A stretch of 64,000 nucleotides of DNA from Elusimicrobiota bacterium (GCA_023213235.1 CP096137.1:3374437-3438436), one strand, 5' to 3'; positions 7,332 through 60,866 are shown, counted from the first letter of the stretch. A program made the numbers and translations. The notes: generated by a model from the letters alone, not told the origin.

Positions 7332-9104
7332 CTAGGCGGTCAGCCTTTTGACTTCCTCTTCCTTCGCCTGCAGGGCGGCCTGCACGGTCTCCATCTCCTC
7401 GCCGACCTTGGTCACGCGGTCGAAGTCCTCGTAGAGCTTGGGATCCGACATCTCATTGGCGATGCGCTCCATGTCGGCGTGAAGCCGCTCGAGCTCGGCC
7501 TGCGCCTTCTCGAGGGCCTTCGCCTTTCGGCGCGCGTCCTTGGACGCCTCGTAGGCGTTGTCGGCCGCGCTCTCGGGGCGCGCGTCCGTCGGGGCCGCTT
7601 TCGCAGGCCCGCCGTTCTCCGCCTCCAACTGGGCCATGCGGTGCTGGAAGTACTCGAAGTTGCCCGGGTAGACCGTGATCTTGCCCTGCACGACGTGGAC
7701 GACATGGTCGGCGACCGCGTTCAAGAAGTACACGTCGTGCGAGATCGCGCAGATCGTGCCCTCGAAGGACTTCAAGGCGTCGACGAGCGCCTCGACGCTG
7801 GTGAGGTCCAAGTGGGTGGTGGGCTCGTCGAGGAGCAGGACGTTCGGCGGATCCAGGAGCAGCTTGGCCAGCTGCAGGCGGCTCTTCTCTCCGCCCGAGA
7901 GGACCTCGACCTTCTTGTGCACCGAGTCGCCGGGGAACAGGAAGGTGCCGAGCACCGTGCGCGTGAACAGGTCGCCGTTGAGGCGGCCGACGCTGGTCGC
8001 CTCCTGCAGGACGGTGCGGCGCGGATCGAGCTGGCCCTCGCGATGCTGGGAGAAGTAGCCGACCTTCACGTTGTGGCCGAGCACGCGCTCGCCGGAGTCG
8101 ATCGGGATGATGTCGCCGAGGACTTTGAGAAGGGTCGACTTTCCCGCCCCGTTCGGTCCGACGAAGGCCATCTTCTGGCCGCGCTCGAGCTCGAAGTTGA
8201 GCCCGTCGTAGACGACGTTCGAGCCGTAGGCCTTGTGCACGTTTTTGAGGCGCAGCACCGAGGTGCCGGTGCGCCCGGGCTGAGGGAAGGTGATGCTGAC
8301 CGACTTCAGCGACGGCGGCAGCTCGATGCGCTCGATCTTGTCGAGCTTCTTCATGACACTCTGCACGCGCGACGCGGTGGAGACCCGCGCGCGGTTGCGC
8401 ATGATGAAGTCCTCCATCGCCGCGATCTCGTCCTGCTGCTGCTTGTACGCGGACATCACGCGGTCGCGCGCGGCCTCGCGCTCGGCGAGGAAGCCCTCGT
8501 AGTTCGTGTTGTACTTCTTGAGCCGCTTGTCCTCGACGGCCACGATCGCCGAGCACACCTCGTCGATGAAGCCGCGGTCGTGCGAGATCATCAGGATCGC
8601 GCCGGGGTAGGACTGGAGATATTCCTGAAACCAGACGAGCGTCAGCAGGTCGAGGTGGTTCGTGGGCTCGTCGAGCAGGAGCAGCTGCGGCTCCTCGACG
8701 AGCAGGCGCGCGAGCGCGCCGCGCATCGCCCAGCCGCCCGAGAGCTCGGAGATCGGCTTGTCGAAGTCCGCGACCTTGAAGCCGAGGCCCATGAGGATTT
8801 TCTTGGCTTTGGCCGTCTCGCGGCCGTCGGGGTCGGAGCGGTGGGCAAGCGCCGTCTCGAGGACGGTCTCCTCGCCGATCGGAGGGTTCTCCTGGGGCAG
8901 GTAGCCGGCCTTGGCGCCGCGCTTCCACTCGATCGAGCCGCCGTCGGGCTCTTCCTCGCCGAGCAGCATCTTGAAGAGCGTCGACTTGCCGGCGCCGTTC
9001 GGACCCACCAAGGCGAAGCGGTCCCCCGCGTTGAGCTGGAGGTCAGCCCCGTCGTAGAGGACCTGGTCGCCGAACGACTTCTTGATGCCGCGGACGGAAA
9101 TCAC
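7332..9104 (-). CDS. ABC-F family ATP-binding protein
   Basis: Two ABC cassettes (GPNGAGKST, LSGGW/LSGGE, LLLDEPTNHLD), an interdomain linker and a C-terminal coiled coil; no transmembrane segments. Confidence 0.92.
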   Translation of the reverse strand: MISVRGIKKSFGDQVLYDGADLQLNAGDRFALVGPNGAGKSTLFKMLLGEEEPDGGSIEWKRGAKAGYLPQENPPIGEETVLETALAHRSDPDGRETAKAKKILMGLGFKVADFDKPISELSGGWAMRGALARLLVEEPQLLLLDEPTNHLDLLTLVWFQEYLQSYPGAILMISHDRGFIDEVCSAIVAVEDKRLKKYNTNYEGFLAEREAARDRVMSAYKQQQDEIAAMEDFIMRNRARVSTASRVQSVMKKLDKIERIELPPSLKSVSITFPQPGRTGTSVLRLKNVHKAYGSNVVYDGLNFELERGQKMAFVGPNGAGKSTLLKVLGDIIPIDSGERVLGHNVKVGYFSQHREGQLDPRRTVLQEATSVGRLNGDLFTRTVLGTFLFPGDSVHKKVEVLSGGEKSRLQLAKLLLDPPNVLLLDEPTTHLDLTSVEALVDALKSFEGTICAISHDVYFLNAVADHVVHVVQGKITVYPGNFEYFQHRMAQLEAENGGPAKAAPTDARPESAADNAYEASKDARRKAKALEKAQAELERLHADMERIANEMSDPKLYEDFDRVTKVGEEMETVQAALQAKEEEVKRLTA

Positions 9105-9138
9105 GGGTACATTCTACCAATTGAGGTCGGTGCCCGAC

Positions 9139-9962
9139 GGTGTCAGGTTTTGCAATTCTCCAATTCCGTGGAACTTTTGGCCACTCTCAGTCGTATGTAT
9201 AGTAATGGGAAGAAAACCGAGGATTCATTTCGACGGAGCCATGTTTCATTGTTGGGCGCGCGGAGTCGATCGGAGAACGATTTACGTCGATGACTCCGAC
9301 TATTCGGGATTTATGGACTGCTTGGAGGGAGTGCTGCGCGCGGCAGATGCGAAACTAATCGCTTATTGCCTGATGCCGAATCACTTCCATCTGCTCATTC
9401 AGGTAGGACGAATTCCGCTTTCGTCGATCATGCAGAGAACGTTAACGACCTATGCCGCCCGATTCAATAAGCGTCATGGGAGGGTCGGCCATTTATTCCA
9501 AGAACGGTTTCGAGAGAAGTTGTGCTGCGACAACGTCTACTTGGCCAACATCATCCCGTATATTCACAGGAACCCGGTCCGCGCATCACTAGTCGCTTCA
9601 CCCGATCAATGGAAATGGTCCAGTCAGAGCCGATTTCCTGTTGATTCGATGGACTTGACCGGATTCGATCCCTGGGAAGGATCAGTGGACAGCCCTCTTG
9701 ATCTAACTCGTCGTGAGGAAATGGAACGGGCATCACTCCAAAGCGTCGTCGAAGCCGTCTCAATGGAGACTTCCGTCGACCACGCGCTTATCCGATCGGG
9801 CTGTAAAATCGCTGAGGCAGTTTCAGCGCGGAGAATTGCGGCCGTCAGGATGTTCGAGGCGGGATACTCGGCTTCCGACATCGCCCGGTTTCTACGAATT
9901 GCGATCAGCTCAGCCTGTCGGTTTAGGCCGGGAAGAATTGCAAAATTGCAAAGCCTGACACC
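9139..9962 (+). mobile_element. RAYT element 1 bounded by inverted repeats
   Basis: GGTGTCAGGTTTTGCAATT (9139-9157) and its inverse AATTGCAAAGCCTGACACC (9944-9962), 18/19 match; lower GC than flanks. Confidence 0.75.
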
Positions 9963-10011
9963 AGGGACTACTCCAGGGCCTTCTTCAGGCGGGCCTTCGC
10001 CAATGGGCTGA
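9205..10011 (+). CDS. REP-associated tyrosine transposase (Y1/HUH) with C-terminal helix-turn-helix
   Basis: FHCWARGVDR, YCLMPNHFHLL (HUH), HLFQERF, YIHRNPVRA, W.WSS. The real stop may be TGA 9956-9958 inside the right repeat if a base is missing. Confidence 0.85.
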   Translation: MGRKPRIHFDGAMFHCWARGVDRRTIYVDDSDYSGFMDCLEGVLRAADAKLIAYCLMPNHFHLLIQVGRIPLSSIMQRTLTTYAARFNKRHGRVGHLFQERFREKLCCDNVYLANIIPYIHRNPVRASLVASPDQWKWSSQSRFPVDSMDLTGFDPWEGSVDSPLDLTRREEMERASLQSVVEAVSMETSVDHALIRSGCKIAEAVSARRIAAVRMFEAGYSASDIARFLRIAISSACRFRPGRIAKLQSLTPGTTPGPSSGGPSPMG

Positions 10012-10189
10012 GGCCGGGGCAGCCGGCGTCGGACTTGCAGGCGCGGCGCAGGATCGTCAGGTGTTCGAGCAAACGCCGGCAGACGTCGCACACCGACAGG
10101 TGGAGCTTGGCGTGAAGTCCGATCGGGCGGCCGTCCATGGCGTCGGACAGCAGGCGGGCGACTTCCTTGCAGGACGGGAGCATGCTCAC
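9968..10189 (-). CDS. zf-HC2 (ZAS) anti-sigma factor
   Basis: SCKEVARLLSD...HLSVCDVC (HxxxCxxC); GTGA overlap with the sigma stop. Confidence 0.8.
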   Translation of the reverse strand: MSMLPSCKEVARLLSDAMDGRPIGLHAKLHLSVCDVCRRLLEHLTILRRACKSDAGCPGLSPLAKARLKKALE

Positions 10190-10734
10190 GCGGCCCCCGG
10201 TGCGAAGTGGTTCTTTTCGAGGCACCGGCGCAGGCGCAGGCGCGCGCGGTACAGGAGCACGGCCAGATGGGCGGGCGGAACGCCGAGAGCCTCGGCGGCG
10301 GCGGGGGCGTCGAGGCCTTCCATCTCGCGCAGGACGAAGGCGCGCGCGACGGGGGCGGTGAGGCCCTCGAGACAGCGGCGCAGGGCGGCCCCGAGCTCGG
10401 CGGACTCGGCCTTGGCCTGCGGCCATTCGCGCGGGGCCTCGGCGGGGGTCCAGTGGCGGCCGTCGAAGAGGTCATCCTCGCGGGAGCCGTCGTCGTCGCC
10501 GAGCGGCGTCTCTTTCGACTGCTTACGGTAATGCTCGAAGATTTTGTTTCGGAGGATGCCGGTCATCCAGGTCAGCTCGGAGGATTCGGCCTTGAACTTG
10601 GCTCTCGATTCGAGCGCGGCCAGGAACGTCTCTTGGACGAGGTCCTCGGCGGAAGCCTGGTCGCGCACGCGGGAGAAGGCGTAGCGGAACAGGCGGTCGC
10701 CGTAGGCATCGACCCATGATTTCGGATCGGTCAA
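10186..10734 (-). CDS. ECF RNA polymerase sigma factor
   Basis: AEDLVQETFLAA, TWMTGILRNK, FVLREMEG, LYRARLRLR. Confidence 0.9.
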   Translation of the reverse strand: MTDPKSWVDAYGDRLFRYAFSRVRDQASAEDLVQETFLAALESRAKFKAESSELTWMTGILRNKIFEHYRKQSKETPLGDDDGSREDDLFDGRHWTPAEAPREWPQAKAESAELGAALRRCLEGLTAPVARAFVLREMEGLDAPAAAEALGVPPAHLAVLLYRARLRLRRCLEKNHFAPGAA

Positions 10735-11485
10735 CGGACCTCCGTGATCAGGCCGCTCTCCGCGAGAAACGCGAAAAACGACTTCGTACGAGCCTCGGTC
10801 ATGCCTTTTGCCTTGGACAACGCCTGGGACAGACGAGCCCCCTTCATGAGCGAAGAAAGAACCGATGCTTCAGGAGCGGCGAGCGTGACGGAGCTTACGG
10901 GGCCGCCGCCGCGCTTATATAGGAGGACCCATTGCTCGTGAGCCCAATCGGACTTCTTGAGGGGAGAATCGTCGCGACGGTCTCTTTTCCAGATTCGGTG
11001 TACGGCATGGCCGAATTTCAAGAATCGGATCGCCGGGCCAAAAATCAATACGGAATTATTTTTGACGGATTGAGAGAGCAGTTTGGCCGACAACGGCGCG
11101 TGGGGCGCCGCGTGAAAGAGTTCTTTGTACTCCCATTCCAACACAGCCAAATTTTCTATGAACGGCGCTTCGCGCCCAAACTTCTTTTCAGGAATCCGGG
11201 GAACGAGCCGCCGTAGTCCGACAGATTATGGGATTTGGAAGGAACGGACCGCGCGTACTCCTCGCACGCCCTCAGAAAATCCTCGTCACCCAGAACGCGC
11301 CAGCAAGTCTCAAACGTCTCGCCCAACGCTTCCGACAGTCTCGCGGGATAGCCTTTCCGATACACGTCGACGGCGGCGAGGGCCGACAACCGGCCTCCTC
11401 CGGACACCGACGCGGCGAACGACGGGTCGACGGCGCCGTAGGCCGAGGAGACGAAGCGGCGTTGAAGCGCTTTAAGCGACGGCAA
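10731..11485 (-). CDS. DUF2063 / BufC-type MNIO partner protein (frameshift in the A-run near 11188)
   Basis: VYRKGYPARLSEAL..F, PS.SHNL.DYG..F. Adding one A joins the two ORFs as LKKKFGREAPFIENLAVLEWE. Confidence 0.8.
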
Positions 11486-12290
11486 GATTCGCCTCCGCCA
11501 ACCGTATCGCCTTCTTCACCTCGTTTTCGAGCACGTTCCACGCGGGGACGTCCTCGTCCCATTCGATGAGCACGGGAACCTCCGGCACGCGGCGGATCAC
11601 GCGGCGATACAACTCCCAGACGGGATCGGTCGGAGCCTTGGAGTGCGTGTCGAACAGGAAGTCGCCCATGTCGGAGTAGCCGCCGAGATGGAGCTGGGCG
11701 ATGAACTCCGAGGGAATCGCGTCGAGGTAATCCTCGGCCTTGAAGCCGTGGTTGGTCGCGCTGACGAAGACGTTGTTGACGTCGAGGAGGATCTTGCAGC
11801 CCGAGCGCCGCGCGATCTCGACGAGGAACTCCTCCTCCTTCATCTCGGAGTCGCGGTAGGTGAGGTAGCTCGACACATTCTCCAAACCGATCGGCCTTGC
11901 TAAATGCTCTTGGACGCGATTGACATTCCTGACGACGGTCCTGACCGCCTCTTCCGTATAAGGCAGCGGCAGGAGATCGTGAATATTCTTCGCGTGCGCG
12001 CCCGTGAAGCAGAGGTGATCGGTCACGAGGAACGGCTCGACCTCGGAGATCAGCCGCTTGAGGGATTCCAGATACCCGGGCCGCGGGCCCTCGACGCCGC
12101 CGATCGACAGCGACACGCCGTGCAGCGCGACGGGGTAGTCGCGACGGATCGCTTTGAGGACTTCTCGCGGGCGGCCGTGCGAGTCCATGTAGTTCTCGCT
12201 GAGGGCCTCGAACCAGGAGACGGCCGTGCGCGGGCGGCGAAGAAGGACGGGGAAGTGGGCGGAGCGCAGCCCGGCCCCCGCCTTGATCAG
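11472..12290 (-). CDS. DUF692 multinuclear non-heme iron oxidase (MNIO, BufB/MbnB family)
   Basis: GLR..H, EALSENY, LHGVSLSIG, DHLC, HDLLPLPY, LENVSSY, LLDVNNVFV, QLHLGG, DTH, LIEWD. The start is probably CTG at 12290, overlapping the precursor TGA. Confidence 0.9.
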   Translation of the reverse strand: MIKAGAGLRSAHFPVLLRRPRTAVSWFEALSENYMDSHGRPREVLKAIRRDYPVALHGVSLSIGGVEGPRPGYLESLKRLISEVEPFLVTDHLCFTGAHAKNIHDLLPLPYTEEAVRTVVRNVNRVQEHLARPIGLENVSSYLTYRDSEMKEEEFLVEIARRSGCKILLDVNNVFVSATNHGFKAEDYLDAIPSEFIAQLHLGGYSDMGDFLFDTHSKAPTDPVWELYRRVIRRVPEVPVLIEWDEDVPAWNVLENEVKKAIRLAEANLAVA

Positions 12291-12606
12291 CCCGCTTTGA
12301 ACTTTCCGTTTCGCGAGCGGCAATCGGTCTCCGTCAGGCTCAGCCAGCCCTTGCCCTTGCAGGCGTTCTGTCCGGCGCAGGCGTGGCCCTCGGGCCCGCC
12401 GCAGGCGCCCTGGCCTTTGCAGGCGTTGACGCCCCAGCACTCGCCCTTCTTGCCGTCGGCCGGCGCGGAAGCGCCCGTCGCGGGCCCCGAGGCCGAAGAC
12501 TGGGCGGCGCCGCCGTGGGCGCCGGAGGGGCCGGGGGCGTCGTCTTGCAACCGGCCATCGCGAAAGCGGCCAGGGCCGCCGCCGTCAGCTTCGTCTGTCG
12601 CTTCAT
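12287..12606 (-). CDS. Bufferin-type RiPP precursor, six-Cys CxGxNxCKG double-repeat class, with lipoprotein signal (frameshift in the Pro/Ala linker)
   Basis: AGGAGA SD; MKRQTKLTAAALAAFAMAG-C lipobox; core ECWGVNACKGQGACGGPEGHACAGQNACKGKGWLSLTETDC in the adjacent frame; directly upstream of DUF692. Confidence 0.8.
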
Positions 12607-12649
12607 GATCGTTCTCCTGAGGATGAGTGCCGGAAAGGCGTCCGGAATG

Positions 12650-14107
12650 TCAGGGCTTCTTGAGGTCGGCGGAGCGGTCGGCGGGCACGCCGTAGCGCGC
12701 CATGACGGCGGGCATGATCTTGGCCGCGGTGTCGGCGTCCATCACGATGCGCGTGCCCTTGTTCTCGCCGTACCCCGAGTAATGCTCGAGCTCGAGCACG
12801 TGCCGGCCGCCGAGCGGCTTCTCGAACGCGGCGACGAGGTCCTTGAGGCTGCCGATCAGGACGCCGTTGACGCGCGTGACCGGCGCCATCGAGAGGCCGT
12901 GGTAGCCGCGGTTGAAGTCGTGGGCGAGCACGTGGGAGAGGACGACGACCTCGGTCCGCTCCGGCGTGGGCATGCCGTCGGCCGAGAGCGAACGCACGCG
13001 ATAGCTCGCGCCGCGCGCCGCGATGAGCTCGTCGGACAGCGGCATGAACACGAGGCCGCCCGCGATGAAGTAGGCGGGGCGCGCGTCGTAGCGCGGGCCG
13101 GGAACGAGGTCGGCCGAGCCCTTCAGCGGCAGCTTGACCGTCGTCTTCTTGTCCTCGCGCACGACGACGGCGTCGAGCGTCTCGCCGATCTGTCGGCGGC
13201 TGATGAGGTCGGAGAAGTCGATGCGCTCGTCGTCGCGGAACGGGATCGTGCCGTCCTGGCCGATCTTGATGCCGTCGAGCTCCATGAGCACGTCGCCTTC
13301 CTTGAGCGCTCCCCACGCCGAGCCGCCGAAGCCGGTCTTCGTGATCAGGACGCCGCTGTTGTCCGGCGGCAGGGACAAGGTCTTGCGCAGGCTCTCGTTT
13401 TCAGTGCCTTGCCACCAGGCGCCGAGCTCGGGGATGCCGTCGTACTTGCCGTCGTCGACGTCTTTCAGGAAGCGCCGGATGATCGGCATCGGCACGACGT
13501 AGCCGATGTTCTGGGCGCCCGCGCTGTGCTGGAAGGCGATGCCGATGAGCTTGCCCTCCTGGAACACGGGGCCGCCGGAGTTGCCCGGGTTGATCGCCGC
13601 GTCCGTCTGGATCGCGAGCAGGCCGCGCGAGGAGTGCGAGTACACGGTCACGCCGACGCGCGAGACGATGCCCTCGGTTACCGACAGGTCGGTGCCGCCG
13701 ATCGGGTAGCCGTATACGGCCACCTTGTCGCGCTGCGACGGCACGCCGCCGAAGGGCGCCGGCTTCGTCCCGTCGAAGAACGAGGGGTCGTCGACCGTGA
13801 CGACGGCGGTCTCGCCGTCGTGCCCGGCGAACGCCACGCGCGCGGGATACTTGCGGATGTCCCCCGACTTGCGCACCGAGAGATAGGCCGCGTTGGCGAC
13901 GACGTGTCCGTTGGTCAGGATGCGGTTGCCCTCGATGATGACGCCGGAGCCCGTCCCGCTGCCCTGGCGGCCCGGCTGCCAGGGCTGGGCGTAGTCGGGG
14001 TTGCTGGCCGTGAAGTGGATCTGGACGGTGGCCCGGCGCAACTCGCGGTCGGCGTTGGCGGCCGCGGCGGGCGTCGCCAGGACGAGGAGCAGGAGAAGGT
14101 GGCGCAT
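12650..14107 (-). CDS. HtrA/Deg-type serine protease with PDZ domains (Deg2-like)
   Basis: Signal peptide from ATG 14107; GSGVII, LTNGHVV, GYPIGG, IQTDAAINPGNSGGP. Confidence 0.88.
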   Translation of the reverse strand: MRHLLLLLVLATPAAAANADRELRRATVQIHFTASNPDYAQPWQPGRQGSGTGSGVIIEGNRILTNGHVVANAAYLSVRKSGDIRKYPARVAFAGHDGETAVVTVDDPSFFDGTKPAPFGGVPSQRDKVAVYGYPIGGTDLSVTEGIVSRVGVTVYSHSSRGLLAIQTDAAINPGNSGGPVFQEGKLIGIAFQHSAGAQNIGYVVPMPIIRRFLKDVDDGKYDGIPELGAWWQGTENESLRKTLSLPPDNSGVLITKTGFGGSAWGALKEGDVLMELDGIKIGQDGTIPFRDDERIDFSDLISRRQIGETLDAVVVREDKKTTVKLPLKGSADLVPGPRYDARPAYFIAGGLVFMPLSDELIAARGASYRVRSLSADGMPTPERTEVVVLSHVLAHDFNRGYHGLSMAPVTRVNGVLIGSLKDLVAAFEKPLGGRHVLELEHYSGYGENKGTRIVMDADTAAKIMPAVMARYGVPADRSADLKKP

Positions 14108-14204
14108 GAGGGGAATCGTAGCATTCCCCGCCCCGGGAGCCGTGTCCCGTTCGTAACAAATCTGATCTTGCGGAGACGTGAACGGCCTGCTATATCCTCG
14201 TCGC

Positions 14205-14594
14205 ATGGCCACCCTTTCCAGCGCGCTCTTCGCCGCCGTCAACTTCGTCCATGCCATGATCTTCGGCGGCCCCATCGACGGCACCGCGTGGGACGTCAAG
14301 GTCAAGCAGGACGGCTTCTTTCACTGGGGCAGCAAGAAGGACACCCTCGTCTTCCACAAGGGCAAGCTCGTGGTCGCCGGCGCCGTCGGCCAGGGCTACT
14401 CCCCCGCCCTCTACGAATCGCGCGACGAGAGCCAGGGCACCGTCTTCGAGGCCGTGCTCGACGACCCCTCCCGCGAGCCGATCGAGTGGTCCGGCCGCGT
14501 CGAGGGCGACAAGATCTCCGGCGTCGTCATCGTGCGCGCGCGCGACGGCCGCGCGGTGAAGTACGCCTTCTCGGGCGCCAAGAAGGCCGGCTAA
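14205..14594 (+). CDS. Hypothetical beta-rich protein
   Basis: TATCCT 6 nt before ATG 14205; host-like codon usage. Confidence 0.6.
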   Translation: MATLSSALFAAVNFVHAMIFGGPIDGTAWDVKVKQDGFFHWGSKKDTLVFHKGKLVVAGAVGQGYSPALYESRDESQGTVFEAVLDDPSREPIEWSGRVEGDKISGVVIVRARDGRAVKYAFSGAKKAG

Positions 14595-14612
14595 AGCTAC
14601 AATAGCCGGGCC

Positions 14613-15169
14613 ATGGCCAAGACCCGCATCGTCGCGCTGAACAAGCCCTACGGCTACCTCACCCAGTTCACCGACAAGGACGGCCGCCCCACCCTCTCGA
14701 AGTTCAGCCTGCCCCACGGCGTCTATCCCGCGGGCCGCCTCGACTTCGACAGCGAGGGCCTGCTCCTCCTCACCGACGACGGCGGCCTCGCCCATCGCCT
14801 GACCGATCCTTCGCACGGCCATCCGCGCGTCTATTGGGCGCAGGTCGACCGCGTGCCCGACGAGGCGACGATGAAGACGCTGCGCTCGGGCGTCATGCTC
14901 AGCGACGGCAAGTCGAAGTCCTGCAAGGCGCGCGTGCTGACCGAAGAGCCGGACCTTCCGCCGCGCAATCCCCCATCCGCCACCGCCTCAACGTGCCGAC
15001 GTCCTGGATCGAGTTGACGATGACCGAAGGCCGCAACCGCCAGGTCCGCCGCATGTGCGCCGCGATCGGCCACCCCTGCGTCCGCCTCGTGCGCGCCGCG
15101 ATCGGCAACATCACCCTGGCCGGCCTCGAGCCGGGAAAGTGGCGCTGGGTCGACCGCCGCGAACTGTAA
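14613..15169 (+). CDS. rluE: rRNA pseudouridine synthase, RluE/RsuA family (frameshift near 14980)
   Basis: [36 protein letters not shown]. Confidence 0.85.
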
Positions 15170-16008
15170 AGGGGTCAGACCTTACACGTTTCACTTTTTC
15201 GCTCGCGCGTAGCGGCTCACCGACCCCAACGGGCATTGCAGCCATTCCGCGATTCGGACGAGCCGATGTCCTGCCTTCAAGGCTTCCTGGGTAAAAGCCC
15301 GCTTCGTGGCGATTATTCGACGATCGAACGTCGCGGACTTCAGCGCTTCCTCCGAAACGATCTCACGCGCCGCGACGATCGCGCCGATATCCGCCAGCGA
15401 CGGCAGGTCCGGAGCCAATTCGCGCTTCAAATCCAATTCGACGTCCTCGGCGTTCTCCCACGGATCAAAACCGCTAAGGTCCATCCCATCATCCTCTAAC
15501 CTCGCGCCTCGCAGGCTCGACCACGGCCAATGATGGGCTTCGACGGTCAGGCCTGCGCGAACAGGATTCAAATGGATATAGCGAATCACCTTTCGCAGGT
15601 ACAGCTCGTCGAGACAAAGTTTCGCCTTGAACCGCGCCTGAAACAGATGCCCCATTCGTTTGTGGCGGCGATTGTATACCTGCGCGTGAACGCCCTCGAG
15701 CCGCTGCATGACCACGGACAAAGGGACGTGCGCGACGCGAATCGCCAGATGGAAATGGTTGCCCATGAGGCAATACGCCATGATCTCGACTCCGGAATCT
15801 CGCTTGGCTCGTTCGAGCTCCGAGAGAAATAGGAAGCGGTCGTCGTCGTCCTCGAAAATGGAGCGGCCATCCACGCCGCGAGCCATCGCGTGGTATACGG
15901 CGCCGTAGAAATGAACGCGGGGAGGGCGGGGCATGCACTATTCATACGATTGAGCACCCCGAAAAGTTCCCTCAGAAAAAGTGAAACGTGTGAGGTCTGA
16001 CCCCTTTA
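15167..16008 (-). mobile_element. RAYT element 2 bounded by 33-bp inverted repeats
   Basis: TAAAGGGGTCAGACCTTACACGTTTCACTTTTT (15167-15199) and its inverse at 15976-16008, 32/33 match. The outer TAA triplets are the stops of convergent rluE and yihY. Confidence 0.85.
15191..15934 (-). CDS. REP-associated tyrosine transposase (Y1/HUH) with C-terminal HTH
   Basis: YHAMARGVDG, YCLMGNHFHL, HLFQARF, YIHLNPVRA, WPWSS; the stop TGA lies inside the left repeat. Confidence 0.88.
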   Translation of the reverse strand: MPRPPRVHFYGAVYHAMARGVDGRSIFEDDDDRFLFLSELERAKRDSGVEIMAYCLMGNHFHLAIRVAHVPLSVVMQRLEGVHAQVYNRRHKRMGHLFQARFKAKLCLDELYLRKVIRYIHLNPVRAGLTVEAHHWPWSSLRGARLEDDGMDLSGFDPWENAEDVELDLKRELAPDLPSLADIGAIVAAREIVSEEALKSATFDRRIIATKRAFTQEALKAGHRLVRIAEWLQCPLGSVSRYARAKK

Positions 16009-58505: not shown

Positions 58506-59569
58506 TTAATCGCCGAGCACCGACTCCGGGCGCAGGAAATGGCAGGTGTAGCCGTCGGGCAGCTTCTCGAGGTAGTCCTGGTGGTCTTCCTCGGCCTTCC
58601 ACCAGGCGCCGGCCTTCGTGATCTCGGTGACGACGGGCTTGCCCCACTTGCCGCGCTCGTCCACGCGCTTCTTGAACGCCTCGGCGGTCTTCTTCTGCGC
58701 CTCGCTGAGGTAGAAGATCGCCGACCGGTAGGACGAGCCGCGGTCGTTGCCCTGGCGGTTCAAGGTCGTCGGGTCGTGCATGCGGAAGAACCAGCGCAGC
58801 AAGGTCTCGAACGTCAGCTTCGAGGGGTCGAAGACGATCTTGACCGCCTCGGCGTGGCCCTCGTGGTTGCGGTAGGTCGCGTTCTCGACGGGCCCGCCCG
58901 TGTAGCCGACCTCGGTCTGGAGCACCCCGGGAATTTTTCTGAGGATGTGCTGCATGCCCCAGAAGCAGCCGCCCGCGAGGTACGCCGTCTCGGTCTTGGC
59001 CGGCGCGGCCGCGGCCTTGGCCTTCGCGGCGACGGCGTCCTTGTTGAAGAGCGGCAGGTACTGGCCGTAGCCCTCGGCCTCGAGCTTGGCCACGGGGATG
59101 AAGCGCAGGCTCGCGGAGTTGATGCAGAAGCGCAGGCCGCCCTTGTCCTTGGGGCCGTCGTCGAAGACGTGCCCCAGGTGGCTGTCGCCGTGCTTGGAGC
59201 GGACCTCGGTGCGGATCATGCCGTAGGCGCGGTCCTTCTTCTCGACGACGTTCTCGGCGTCGATCGGCTTGGTGAAGGACGGCCAGCCGGTGCCGGAGTC
59301 GAACTTGTCCGTGGAGGAGAACAGCGGCTCGCCGCTGGCGACGTCGACGTAGATGCCGGCCTCGTGGTGGTTCCAGTAGGCGTTGTGGAAGGCGGGCTCG
59401 GTGTCGGAGTTGCAGACGACGGCGAATTGCTCGGGGTGAGCTTCTTCTTGAGCTCGTCCTTCGAGGGCTTGGAGTAGGTCATCTTCTTCTTGGCCTCCTT
59501 CTTGGGCGGCGCGGGCGCGGCGAACGCGAGGGCCGGCGCCAGCAGCAGTCCGACAAAAAGTCGCGTCAT
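58506..59569 (-). CDS. msrAB: Exported MsrB-MsrA fusion methionine sulfoxide reductase (frameshift near 59440)
   Basis: Signal peptide; [26 protein letters not shown]; [20 protein letters not shown]. Confidence 0.9.
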
Positions 59570-59645
59570 GGATCGGGGGATCATAGCACTCATGAGTGTC
59601 CGGGGCGTGCCGGGCATGACACGGTGAAATGATAGGATCGAAAAC

Positions 59646-60379
59646 ATGAACGGAGCTTCCGTCGGCTACGGCGCGGCGTTCCTGGGAGGGCTGCTGTCCT
59701 TCCTGTCGCCGTGCGTCCTGCCGCTGGTGCCGGGCTACGTCTCCTTCATGAGCGGGCTCACGATCGACGAACTGGCCCACGGCGCCGGCGAGAAGGCCGC
59801 CGCGCGCCACGCGGGCTGGGAGTCCCTGTTCTTCGTCGCGGGTTTCACCGTCGTGTTCACCGCGCTCGGCGCGACCGCGACCGCCGCGGGCCGCCTGCTC
59901 GCCGAGCACGCGGCGGTCGTCTCCAAGCTCGCGGGCGCCGTCGTGCTCGCCTTCGGCCTGCACATGACCGGGCTGCTGCCCATCAAGTGGCTGTACTATC
60001 AGAAGCGCGCCGACGTCGCCGCGTTCAAGCCGGGCTACGCCGGATCCTTCCTGATGGGCCTGGCCTTCGCCTTCGGCTGGACGCCGTGCATCGGCCCGGT
60101 GCTGGGCACGATCCTCTCCCTCGCCGCCACGCGCGAGACCGTCGGCCAAGGGGTCGCGCTGCTGCTCACCTACTCCCTCGGTCTCGGGATTCCCTTCGTC
60201 CTGACCGCCTTCGCCATCGGCAGGTTCCTCAAGGCCTTCGCGAAGTACAAAAGCACATCCACGTCGGCGAGAAGATCGCGGGCGTCCTGCTCATCGTCGT
60301 GGGGCTTTTGATCTTCTTCGATCGATTGGCCATGCTCAATCGTTTCGTGCCCAAGTTTCTGGAGAGGTTTTTAATATGA
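59646..60379 (+). CDS. ccdA: Cytochrome c biogenesis CcdA/DsbD-like thiol transporter (frameshift near 60255)
   Basis: [34 protein letters not shown]. Confidence 0.88.
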
Positions 60380-60866
60380 GCGGACGCTTCCTCCTTCTCG
60401 CGGCAGTTCTTCTCTCGTTCGCGTGCTCTCCTTCCGCGGTCCCCGGCGCCGCCGACGGCGCCGCCCCGCGCTGTCCGGCAAGACGTTGGACGGCAAGTCC
60501 GTTTCTCTGTCCGACTATAAAGGCAAGGTCGTGCTCGTCGACTTCTGGGCCACCTGGTGCGGCCCGTGCAAGACCGAGATCCCCGAGCTCATCAAGCTGC
60601 AGGACGAGCTCGGCCCCAAGGGCTTCGTCGTGCTCGGCGTCTCGATGGACGAGGAGACGGAGTCCGTGGCGCCCTTCGCCAAGCGCGCGAAAATCAATTA
60701 TCCCGTGATCCTGCTCGGCGGCGAAACCGCGCCGAAAGGCTGGACCGTGCCCGGGCTGCCGACGGCGTACCTGATCGGACGCGACGGGAGCGCCGTCCTG
60801 CGGCTGTTCGGCTCGAAGTCCGTCGGGAAGCTCAAGACGGAGGTCGAAGCCGCCCTTGCGCGCTAA
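60376..60866 (+). CDS. TlpA-family thioredoxin-like lipoprotein (frameshift near 60460)
   Basis: LSFA-C lipobox; KGKVVLVDFWATWCGPC, LPT.YLI. Confidence 0.85.

Follow-up and report, generated by a model that had tools for sequence, protein, structure and literature searches.

The window analysed here is a stretch of 64,000 nucleotides from the genome of an uncultured Elusimicrobiota bacterium (GCA_023213235.1 CP096137.1:3374437-3438436), and all coordinates given below refer to this whole stretch. Its minus strand carries a run of genes that begins with a Deg/HtrA-like periplasmic serine protease of 485 residues (12650..14107), followed after a spacer of 43 nt (12607-12649) by the gene of a BufA2-type bufferin precursor (bufA, 12287..12606), bufB for an MNIO (DUF692) bufferin maturase (11472..12335, or from a CTG at 12290), bufC for its DUF2063 partner protein (10731..11485), a gene for an extracytoplasmic function (ECF) sigma factor of 182 residues (10186..10734), and one for a cytoplasmic ZAS-type anti-sigma factor of 73 residues without transmembrane segment (9968..10189). 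The last five genes, from bufA to the anti-sigma gene, overlap at their stops and starts: the TGA of bufA and the beginning of bufB share CTGA, bufB and bufC overlap by 14 nt, bufC and the sigma gene share TTGA, and the sigma and anti-sigma genes share GTGA. A first-pass annotation made from the DNA alone had described this same-strand run with its overlaps, and the profile matches bear out its reading of a bufferin-type MNIO operon in which a lipoprotein-type precursor and an ECF/ZAS pair stand in one overlapping run. Gene identities, synteny, the distribution of a promoter-like motif and the context of two frameshifts were observed directly, and on this basis we consider it likely that the five overlapping genes constitute a Buf2-type bufferin ('Cys-Lys captophorin') operon, controlled by its own sigma factor as set out below.

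The maturation genes are the most readily recognized members of the operon. BufB scored 334.9 bits against NF050167 (cut-off 310) and 328.4 bits against PF05114, and its nearest PDB entry is the DUF692 protein 3BWW (6.5e-33). The gene occurs as a single copy in the genome, and a BufB above the cut-off is found in 15 of 41 related genomes. The N-terminal part of bufC matches PF09836 with 61.3 bits (cut-off 27.2); the locus therefore combines the two elements by which a bufferin biosynthetic gene cluster (BGC) is recognized, a BufB-type MNIO that passes the NF050167 cut-off and, next to it, a DUF2063 protein, the gene of the latter being frameshifted. Translation of bufB starts from a TTG at 12335 or a CTG at 12290, where the relatives use ATG. 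At this overlap with the bufA stop (12288-12290) the window reads CTGA and the relatives ATGA, the in-frame TTG lying 45 nt upstream; the CTG is either a rare start codon or a further assembly error. No DoxX gene is present in the cluster, as had been noted from the DNA alone, and the four DoxX-like matches of the genome lie at least ~470 kb away. This absence had been taken as unusual, which it is not: the founding Caulobacter buf2 operon, the archetype of these BGCs, also lacks DoxX, and DoxX is dispensable for the modification and function of Buf1 (PMC11626156). When 44 BufB loci were filtered by transmembrane-segment count, only one or two DoxX-like genes and five genes for the membrane anti-sigma factor NrsF were retained, although a weakly hydrophobic DoxX could escape this filter.

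The precursor begins with MKRQTKLTAAALAAFAMAG-C, where the lipobox AMAG-C conforms to a PROSITE-type rule at Cys20 and is preceded by an N-region with the basic residues K2, R3 and K6. The residue following Cys20 (+2) is Lys, and Asp is never found at this position in the clade. Together with the presence in the genome of LspA (135 bits) and of two Lgt genes (166 and 162 bits), these features point to a lipoprotein processed by signal peptidase II (SPII). A Pro/Gly/Ser/Ala tether of ~30 residues separates the predicted lipid-anchor Cys from the core, ECWGVNACKGQGACGGPEGHACAGQNACKGKGW...DC, which contains six Cys, including those of the motifs CWGVNACKG and CAGQNACKG (two CxGxNxCKG); the six positions are preserved in all relatives. 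This 3' part of the gene, which encodes ...GKKGECWGVNACKGQGACGGPEGHACAGQNACKGKGWLSLTETDCRSRNGKFKAG, lies in a different frame from the signal. BufA2 precursors have been grouped as 'Cys-Lys' captophorins (PMC13097082), a grouping that the two CKG motifs fit; a sequence search of the PDB returned no match for the core. Precursors with a lipobox in a single open reading frame (ORF) are found in all 11 genus-level loci; two loci that belong to other families of this order have signals of the signal peptidase I (SPI) type. The lipobox rule also holds for 43 of the 49 nearest database homologues and, in other phyla, for 12 of 23 precursors, most of them from Bdellovibrionota-like metagenome-assembled genomes (MAGs). 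Membrane tethering of the bufferin, as proposed in the first-pass annotation, is thus a reasonable prediction from the lipobox and the Lgt and LspA genes. The lipoprotein form is not, however, a new variant: it is common in relatives and other phyla and has already been published (PMC12452194; PMC13056109). Indeed, ~16% of Buf2 bufferins carry lipoprotein signal peptides (PMC12452194), DybA has been shown to be a lipidated MNIO-modified, ribosomally synthesized peptide and lipidated bufferins and oxazolins have been listed with it (PMC13056109), while heterocycle formation is independent of the signal peptide (PMC11626156).

Two loci outside the window show other arrangements of precursor genes. 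A locus of genome G006 (L039, 7553-9513) has, after bufC, a second copy of the promoter-like motif described below, then a gene for a secreted protein, a second lipobox bufA2 and the sigma/anti-sigma genes, so that the precursors stand in tandem at this locus. In a metagenome contig (L075, 2468-4697), bufA2-bufB-bufC are directly followed by a BufA1 (PF10048) gene, and one maturase pair thus adjoins precursors of both bufferin families.

The sigma factor matches PF04542 (61.4 bits) and PF08281 (36.4 bits), which correspond to the sigma-2 and sigma-4 regions, with TIGR02943 as the best NCBIfam model, and has orthologues in 14 of 24 relatives of the genus. The anti-sigma factor scored 29.9 bits against NF052368, below the cut-off of 50, and its assignment also draws on its ligand residues: C7...H31-x3-C35-x2-C38 is invariant in 14 aligned orthologues, which are 73-79 residues long and have no hydrophobic stretch. 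A PDB sequence search gave no match for it. The pair nevertheless shows each of the features of the sigmaE/MseR type, namely H-x3-C-x2-C, an N-terminal Cys, no membrane segment and overlapping genes. Sigma and NrsF genes have been reported in Buf1 but not in Buf2 clusters (PMC12452194), and the presence of a sigma/anti-sigma pair in a Buf2 operon is a modest extension of that picture. Genes for NrsF-type membrane anti-sigma factors (PF06532, up to 105 bits) were also observed divergently upstream of Buf2 clusters in five loci from Bdellovibrionota-like and other MAGs (L090, L093, L098, L104 and L111), which contrasts with the survey's statement.

A motif of the form TG(A/T)(C/A)AT, exactly 17 variable bases and CACTCA(T/C) is common to the sigma-bearing relatives. 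In the window it reads TGACAT-N17-CACTCA (12624..12652, minus strand), and its first hexamer opens with TGA, which doubles as the stop codon of the protease gene. The motif was found in 15 of 15 related sigma-bearing loci, always with a spacer of 17 nt whose sequence varies. It precedes bufA and, in the six genomes that lack bufABC, lies 5-8 nt before the start codon of the sigma gene; it is missing from two sigma-less loci (G019 and L071). Its occurrence in bufABC loci lacking the protease gene indicates that it should be assigned to the buf/sigma unit rather than the protease. The window holds two matches, compared with none in 100 shuffles, and the 3.8-Mb genome only two strict matches, one at bufA and one between msrBA and ccdA, where ~0.2 would be expected. 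We regard TGACAT-N17-CACTCA as the putative ECF-dependent promoter of the bufABC-sigma-anti-sigma genes. An Rfam scan of positions 9000-16000 yielded a single sub-threshold chance match only.

The second copy of the motif (TGTCAT-N17-CACTCA, 59593..59621, minus strand) lies in the palindromic core CACTCATGAGTG between msrBA, which encodes a periplasmic MsrB-MsrA fusion (58506-59569, minus strand), and the divergent genes for ccdA (59646-60311, plus strand) and a TlpA-like thioredoxin (60423-60866, plus strand). On both strands, TGTCAT-like hexamers flank this core at a distance of 17 nt. The site resembles an ECF-type promoter for both directions, identical to the motif in the bufA leader. Of the genomes of the genus that could be assessed and have a sigma orthologue, 10 of 11 retain an intact msrBA motif, whereas among those without one it has been deleted or mutated in seven out of nine and is kept in the other two (one-sided Fisher test, ~0.003, not corrected for phylogeny). 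This covariation of a shared motif with the presence of the sigma gene suggests that the sigma factor may be autoregulated, and the same sigma probably also drives the periplasmic msrBA and ccdA/tlpA.

Two of the three biosynthetic genes are broken in the assembly. The first-pass annotation was right that the signal and the core of the precursor lie in different frames; it missed that bufC is frameshifted too. In bufA the reading frame is lost at a run of five C (C5; G5 on the plus strand, 12533-12537) that is one nucleotide short, and ...GC-KTTPP and PGPSGAHGGAA are encoded in successive frames of the window. The homologues P0002-P0008 read C-KTT[F/M]PGPSGAHGGAA through this junction in a single frame, from which it follows that one base is missing from the C5 run of the window; DNA alignment with the relatives could not place the indel, the tether being too divergent, whereas the protein homologues did. 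In bufC, a single ORF in the relatives, an N-terminal part (11156-11485) and a C-terminal part (10731-11150) lie in different frames for lack of one nucleotide in a run of four A (A4; T4 on the plus strand, 11187-11190), and the junction FPGFL|KKFGREAPF needs one extra A to agree with FPEFLHKRFKKQAPF of G001. Were these frameshifts real, this strain would have two pseudogenes, bufA and bufC, in a decaying operon, an idea that gains something from the repeated loss of bufABC in the genus with retention of the flanks, from the damage to two out of three biosynthetic genes and from the CTG start of bufB where relatives have ATG. However, when the ORFs of three short-read relatives were compared with the genome, frame changes also appeared inside rluE (~14975) and in at least five other genes of the neighbourhood, and msrBA proved to be broken after its signal peptide (~59480). 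In all, at least nine genes in ~60 kb show single-base frame breaks against the short-read relatives, about one break for every 5-7 kb of coding sequence compared. Both breaks in the operon are single-base gaps within homopolymers, codon-level conservation is intact on either side of each, and the genome, a single contig of 3.80 Mb, was scored only 83.6% complete, which fits indel error. Because such gaps are spread over so many genes, the frameshifts in bufA and bufC most likely stem from single-base homopolymer errors in a long-read assembly, and we hold genuine decay to be unlikely. Programmed ribosomal frameshifting, which would join the signal peptide of bufA to its core, could be suspected from the slippery-looking C-rich run CCCCCGG at the break; we reject it as scarcely credible, given that every relative and 48 of the 49 homologues have a single-frame precursor with no conserved shift site, and that this assembly has many unrelated frame breaks. 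It follows that pseudogene and frameshift calls in this indel-rich genome need the support of reads.

The Deg/HtrA-like protease had been included in the cluster, with the suggestions that it might release or recycle the tethered peptide or degrade the anti-sigma factor. The protein has a Sec signal MRHLLLLLVLATPAAAA, a trypsin fold (Trypsin_2, 75.8 bits) and a PDZ_3 domain (105.3 bits), and its gene lies on the same strand 43 nt from bufA, a scan for sigma-70 promoters and terminators having found nothing between the two. Moreover, in the sigma-less loci G019 and L071 the spacer between the protease gene and bufABC is only 11-20 nt, without motif, and bufABC is there probably co-transcribed with the protease. 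Comparison of the genomes nevertheless separates the two. The backbone of the genus consists of RluE, a small conserved ORF, the protease (Deg), a variable slot and ABC-F. This slot holds bufABC with the sigma and anti-sigma genes in the window genome, G001, G023 and L079, bufABC alone in G019, G013 and L071, and the sigma/anti-sigma genes alone in G004, G005, G011, G012, G015 and G017, while it is empty in G016 and G020. Orthologues of the protease, with 78-84% identity, occupy the same RluE/up14178 site whether or not a genome has bufABC. The protease is thus found without bufABC at the site in at least eight genomes (G004, G005, G011, G012, G014, G015, G016, G017 and G020), one Deg-only-site genome carrying bufB on another contig, and bufABC without the protease in at least four (G006, G007, G010 and G018). 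Outside the lineage, 37 BufB loci were surveyed, and none has a Deg homologue within 6 kb. In the protease tree, genomes bearing bufABC sit on early branches of both main clades and clades lacking it are nested inside, a pattern implying that bufABC was lost more than once while the protease gene beside it stayed in place. Published surveys, too, report no further conserved genes in bufferin BGCs (PMC12452194). The protease is therefore not conserved together with the biosynthetic genes in the manner of a BGC-associated processing protease, and its lack of conservation next to MNIO clusters is the very observation that the first-pass annotation had named as telling against its proposal. Degradation of the anti-sigma factor in the manner of DegS and RseA is likewise rejected: the anti-sigma factor, with 73 residues and no membrane segment, is cytoplasmic and out of reach of a periplasmic protease with a signal peptide. 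We accordingly consider it very unlikely that the protease works together with the bufferin, whether by cutting the tether and so releasing or recycling the peptide or by acting on the sigma pathway. Comparative evidence from these genomes identifies it as a syntenic housekeeping neighbour outside the bufferin cluster. We would give as little chance to a recruitment of this Deg2-like protease, within the lineage, for shedding the lipid-anchored bufferin by tether cleavage; were it true, shedding would create a copper buffer with two states, anchored and released, and in G019 and L071 bufABC, joined to the protease gene with no separate promoter, would be expressed with it as one unit.

Several observations weigh against the reading of the locus as a functional Buf2-type operon under its own sigma factor. 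The precursor remains 4-8 bits below the curated cut-off of 60 bits of the BufA2 profile NF050166, the core ORF scoring 55.8 bits (E 3.9e-15, profile positions 17-78 of 79) and the read-through 52.0. The shortfall sits in the N-terminal, SPI-signal part of the profile; orthologues in the genus score 57.8, 59.2 and 62.2 bits and one SPI-type relative 68 bits. There remains some small chance, in line with the judgement given above, that bufA and bufC are truly pseudogenized. Given the lack of a terminator after the protease gene, read-through into bufA is possible. Furthermore, six genomes keep the sigma and anti-sigma genes without bufABC, which means that the pair is not dedicated to the bufferin. 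The proposed promoter is a purely comparative assignment, and its -10 element, CACTCA, does not resemble the CGTC type known from many ECF promoters. There are also exceptions to the pattern at msrBA: the motif is kept in G013 and G022, both incomplete MAGs in which no sigma gene was found, and is degraded in G009, which has the sigma gene.

For the Buf2-type operon we propose the following scheme, which is inferred with respect to chemistry, lipidation, stimulus and the function of the promoter. In the cytoplasm, BufB and BufC would act on the BufA2 core and turn Cys residues there into 5-thiooxazoles. Export through the Sec system would follow, after which Lgt would attach lipid to Cys20 and LspA would cleave the precursor, and the product may be a mini-protein held on the membrane by its flexible tether of ~30 residues and binding copper in the periplasm; both the 5-thiooxazoles and the copper binding are predicted from the protein families concerned. 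The operon bufA-bufB-bufC-sigma-anti-sigma would be read from an autoregulated ECF promoter beginning at the stop codon of the protease gene. The sigma factor would be held by the small cytoplasmic zinc-binding anti-sigma factor, which might free it upon thiol/oxidative, and possibly copper, stress. By also driving msrBA and ccdA/tlpA, the sigma factor would govern a compact regulon for protection of the cell envelope.

The closest known system is Buf2 of Caulobacter vibrioides (bufA2-bufB2-bufC2, CCNA_03001-02999; BUF_6/12Cys), with which the operon shares an exported six-Cys precursor, an MNIO and a DUF2063 protein (PMC11626156, PMC12452194, PMC13097082), as well as Cys-Lys motifs in the precursor, the lack of a DoxX gene and control, predicted here, by an ECF sigma factor, SigF controlling both buf1 and buf2 in Caulobacter (PMC3511200, PMC11626156). 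The operon differs in its SPII lipoprotein signal, where Caulobacter has an SPI signal, in the added tether of ~30 residues, in the inclusion of the sigma and anti-sigma genes within the operon, in the use of a soluble ZAS anti-sigma factor instead of the membrane-bound NrsF, and in its phylum, Elusimicrobiota. With the predicted lipidated bufferins and DybA it has in common an MNIO-modified precursor with a canonical lipobox (PMC12452194, PMC13056109), and the logic of the DybA pathway, cytoplasmic modification followed by the action of Lgt, LspA and Lnt, is similar; however, lipidation has been demonstrated for the ChrH-type DybA only and for no bufferin, and in the present case it is predicted from the sequence. 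The regulatory part is reminiscent of two other systems. In Neisseria, sigmaE/MseR (NMB2140-2145) is autoregulated and shares a transcript with a DoxX/DUF692/DUF2063 cluster; it controls msrAB, and the ligands of MseR are Cys4 and H30x3C34x2C37 (PMC2893595), nearly the same pattern as C7/H31x3C35x2C38 here. In H. influenzae, RpoE2 is paired with HrsE, a cytoplasmic anti-sigma factor of 67 residues (PMC7907618). All three have a small cytoplasmic ZAS anti-sigma gene directly downstream of that of the ECF sigma factor, and the Neisseria system additionally resembles the scheme proposed here in that DUF692 and DUF2063 genes are co-transcribed with the pair and a periplasmic MsrAB belongs to the regulon. 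In contrast, the precursor of the Neisseria and Haemophilus systems is of the Lys-Cys type (EGKCG, oxazolin/gonophorin) and comes with DoxX, and their promoter consensus is different (GTMAGBWTT...CGTCTAAH). The regulon proposed here is predicted from the motif, and the likeness of the sigma factors is one of gene arrangement.

Two IS200/RAYT-like genes for Y1 transposases (9082-10011, plus strand, and 15191-15934, minus strand), one of them with a C-terminal helix-turn-helix, bracket the segment from the anti-sigma gene to rluE. They are ~32% identical over the part compared and are absent at these positions in the relatives. A mobile unit formed by this pair and carrying the cluster was considered and rejected, the relatives sharing the synteny without them.

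Lipoprotein precursors of Buf2, buf2 operons without DoxX and ECF control of MNIO metallophores have all been published already. The interest of the locus, which we would rate as low to moderate, lies instead in the regulon prediction and not in the lipoprotein precursor or the absence of DoxX. What is added is comparative: a Buf2 operon outside the Proteobacteria is built into a sigmaE/MseR-like sigma/ZAS unit, and its putative promoter recurs at the periplasmic msrBA/ccdA genes and decays upon loss of the sigma factor, which amounts to a testable prediction of a regulon. In this uncultured phylum, such a regulon would tie the buffering of copper to a system that repairs oxidised proteins of the envelope.

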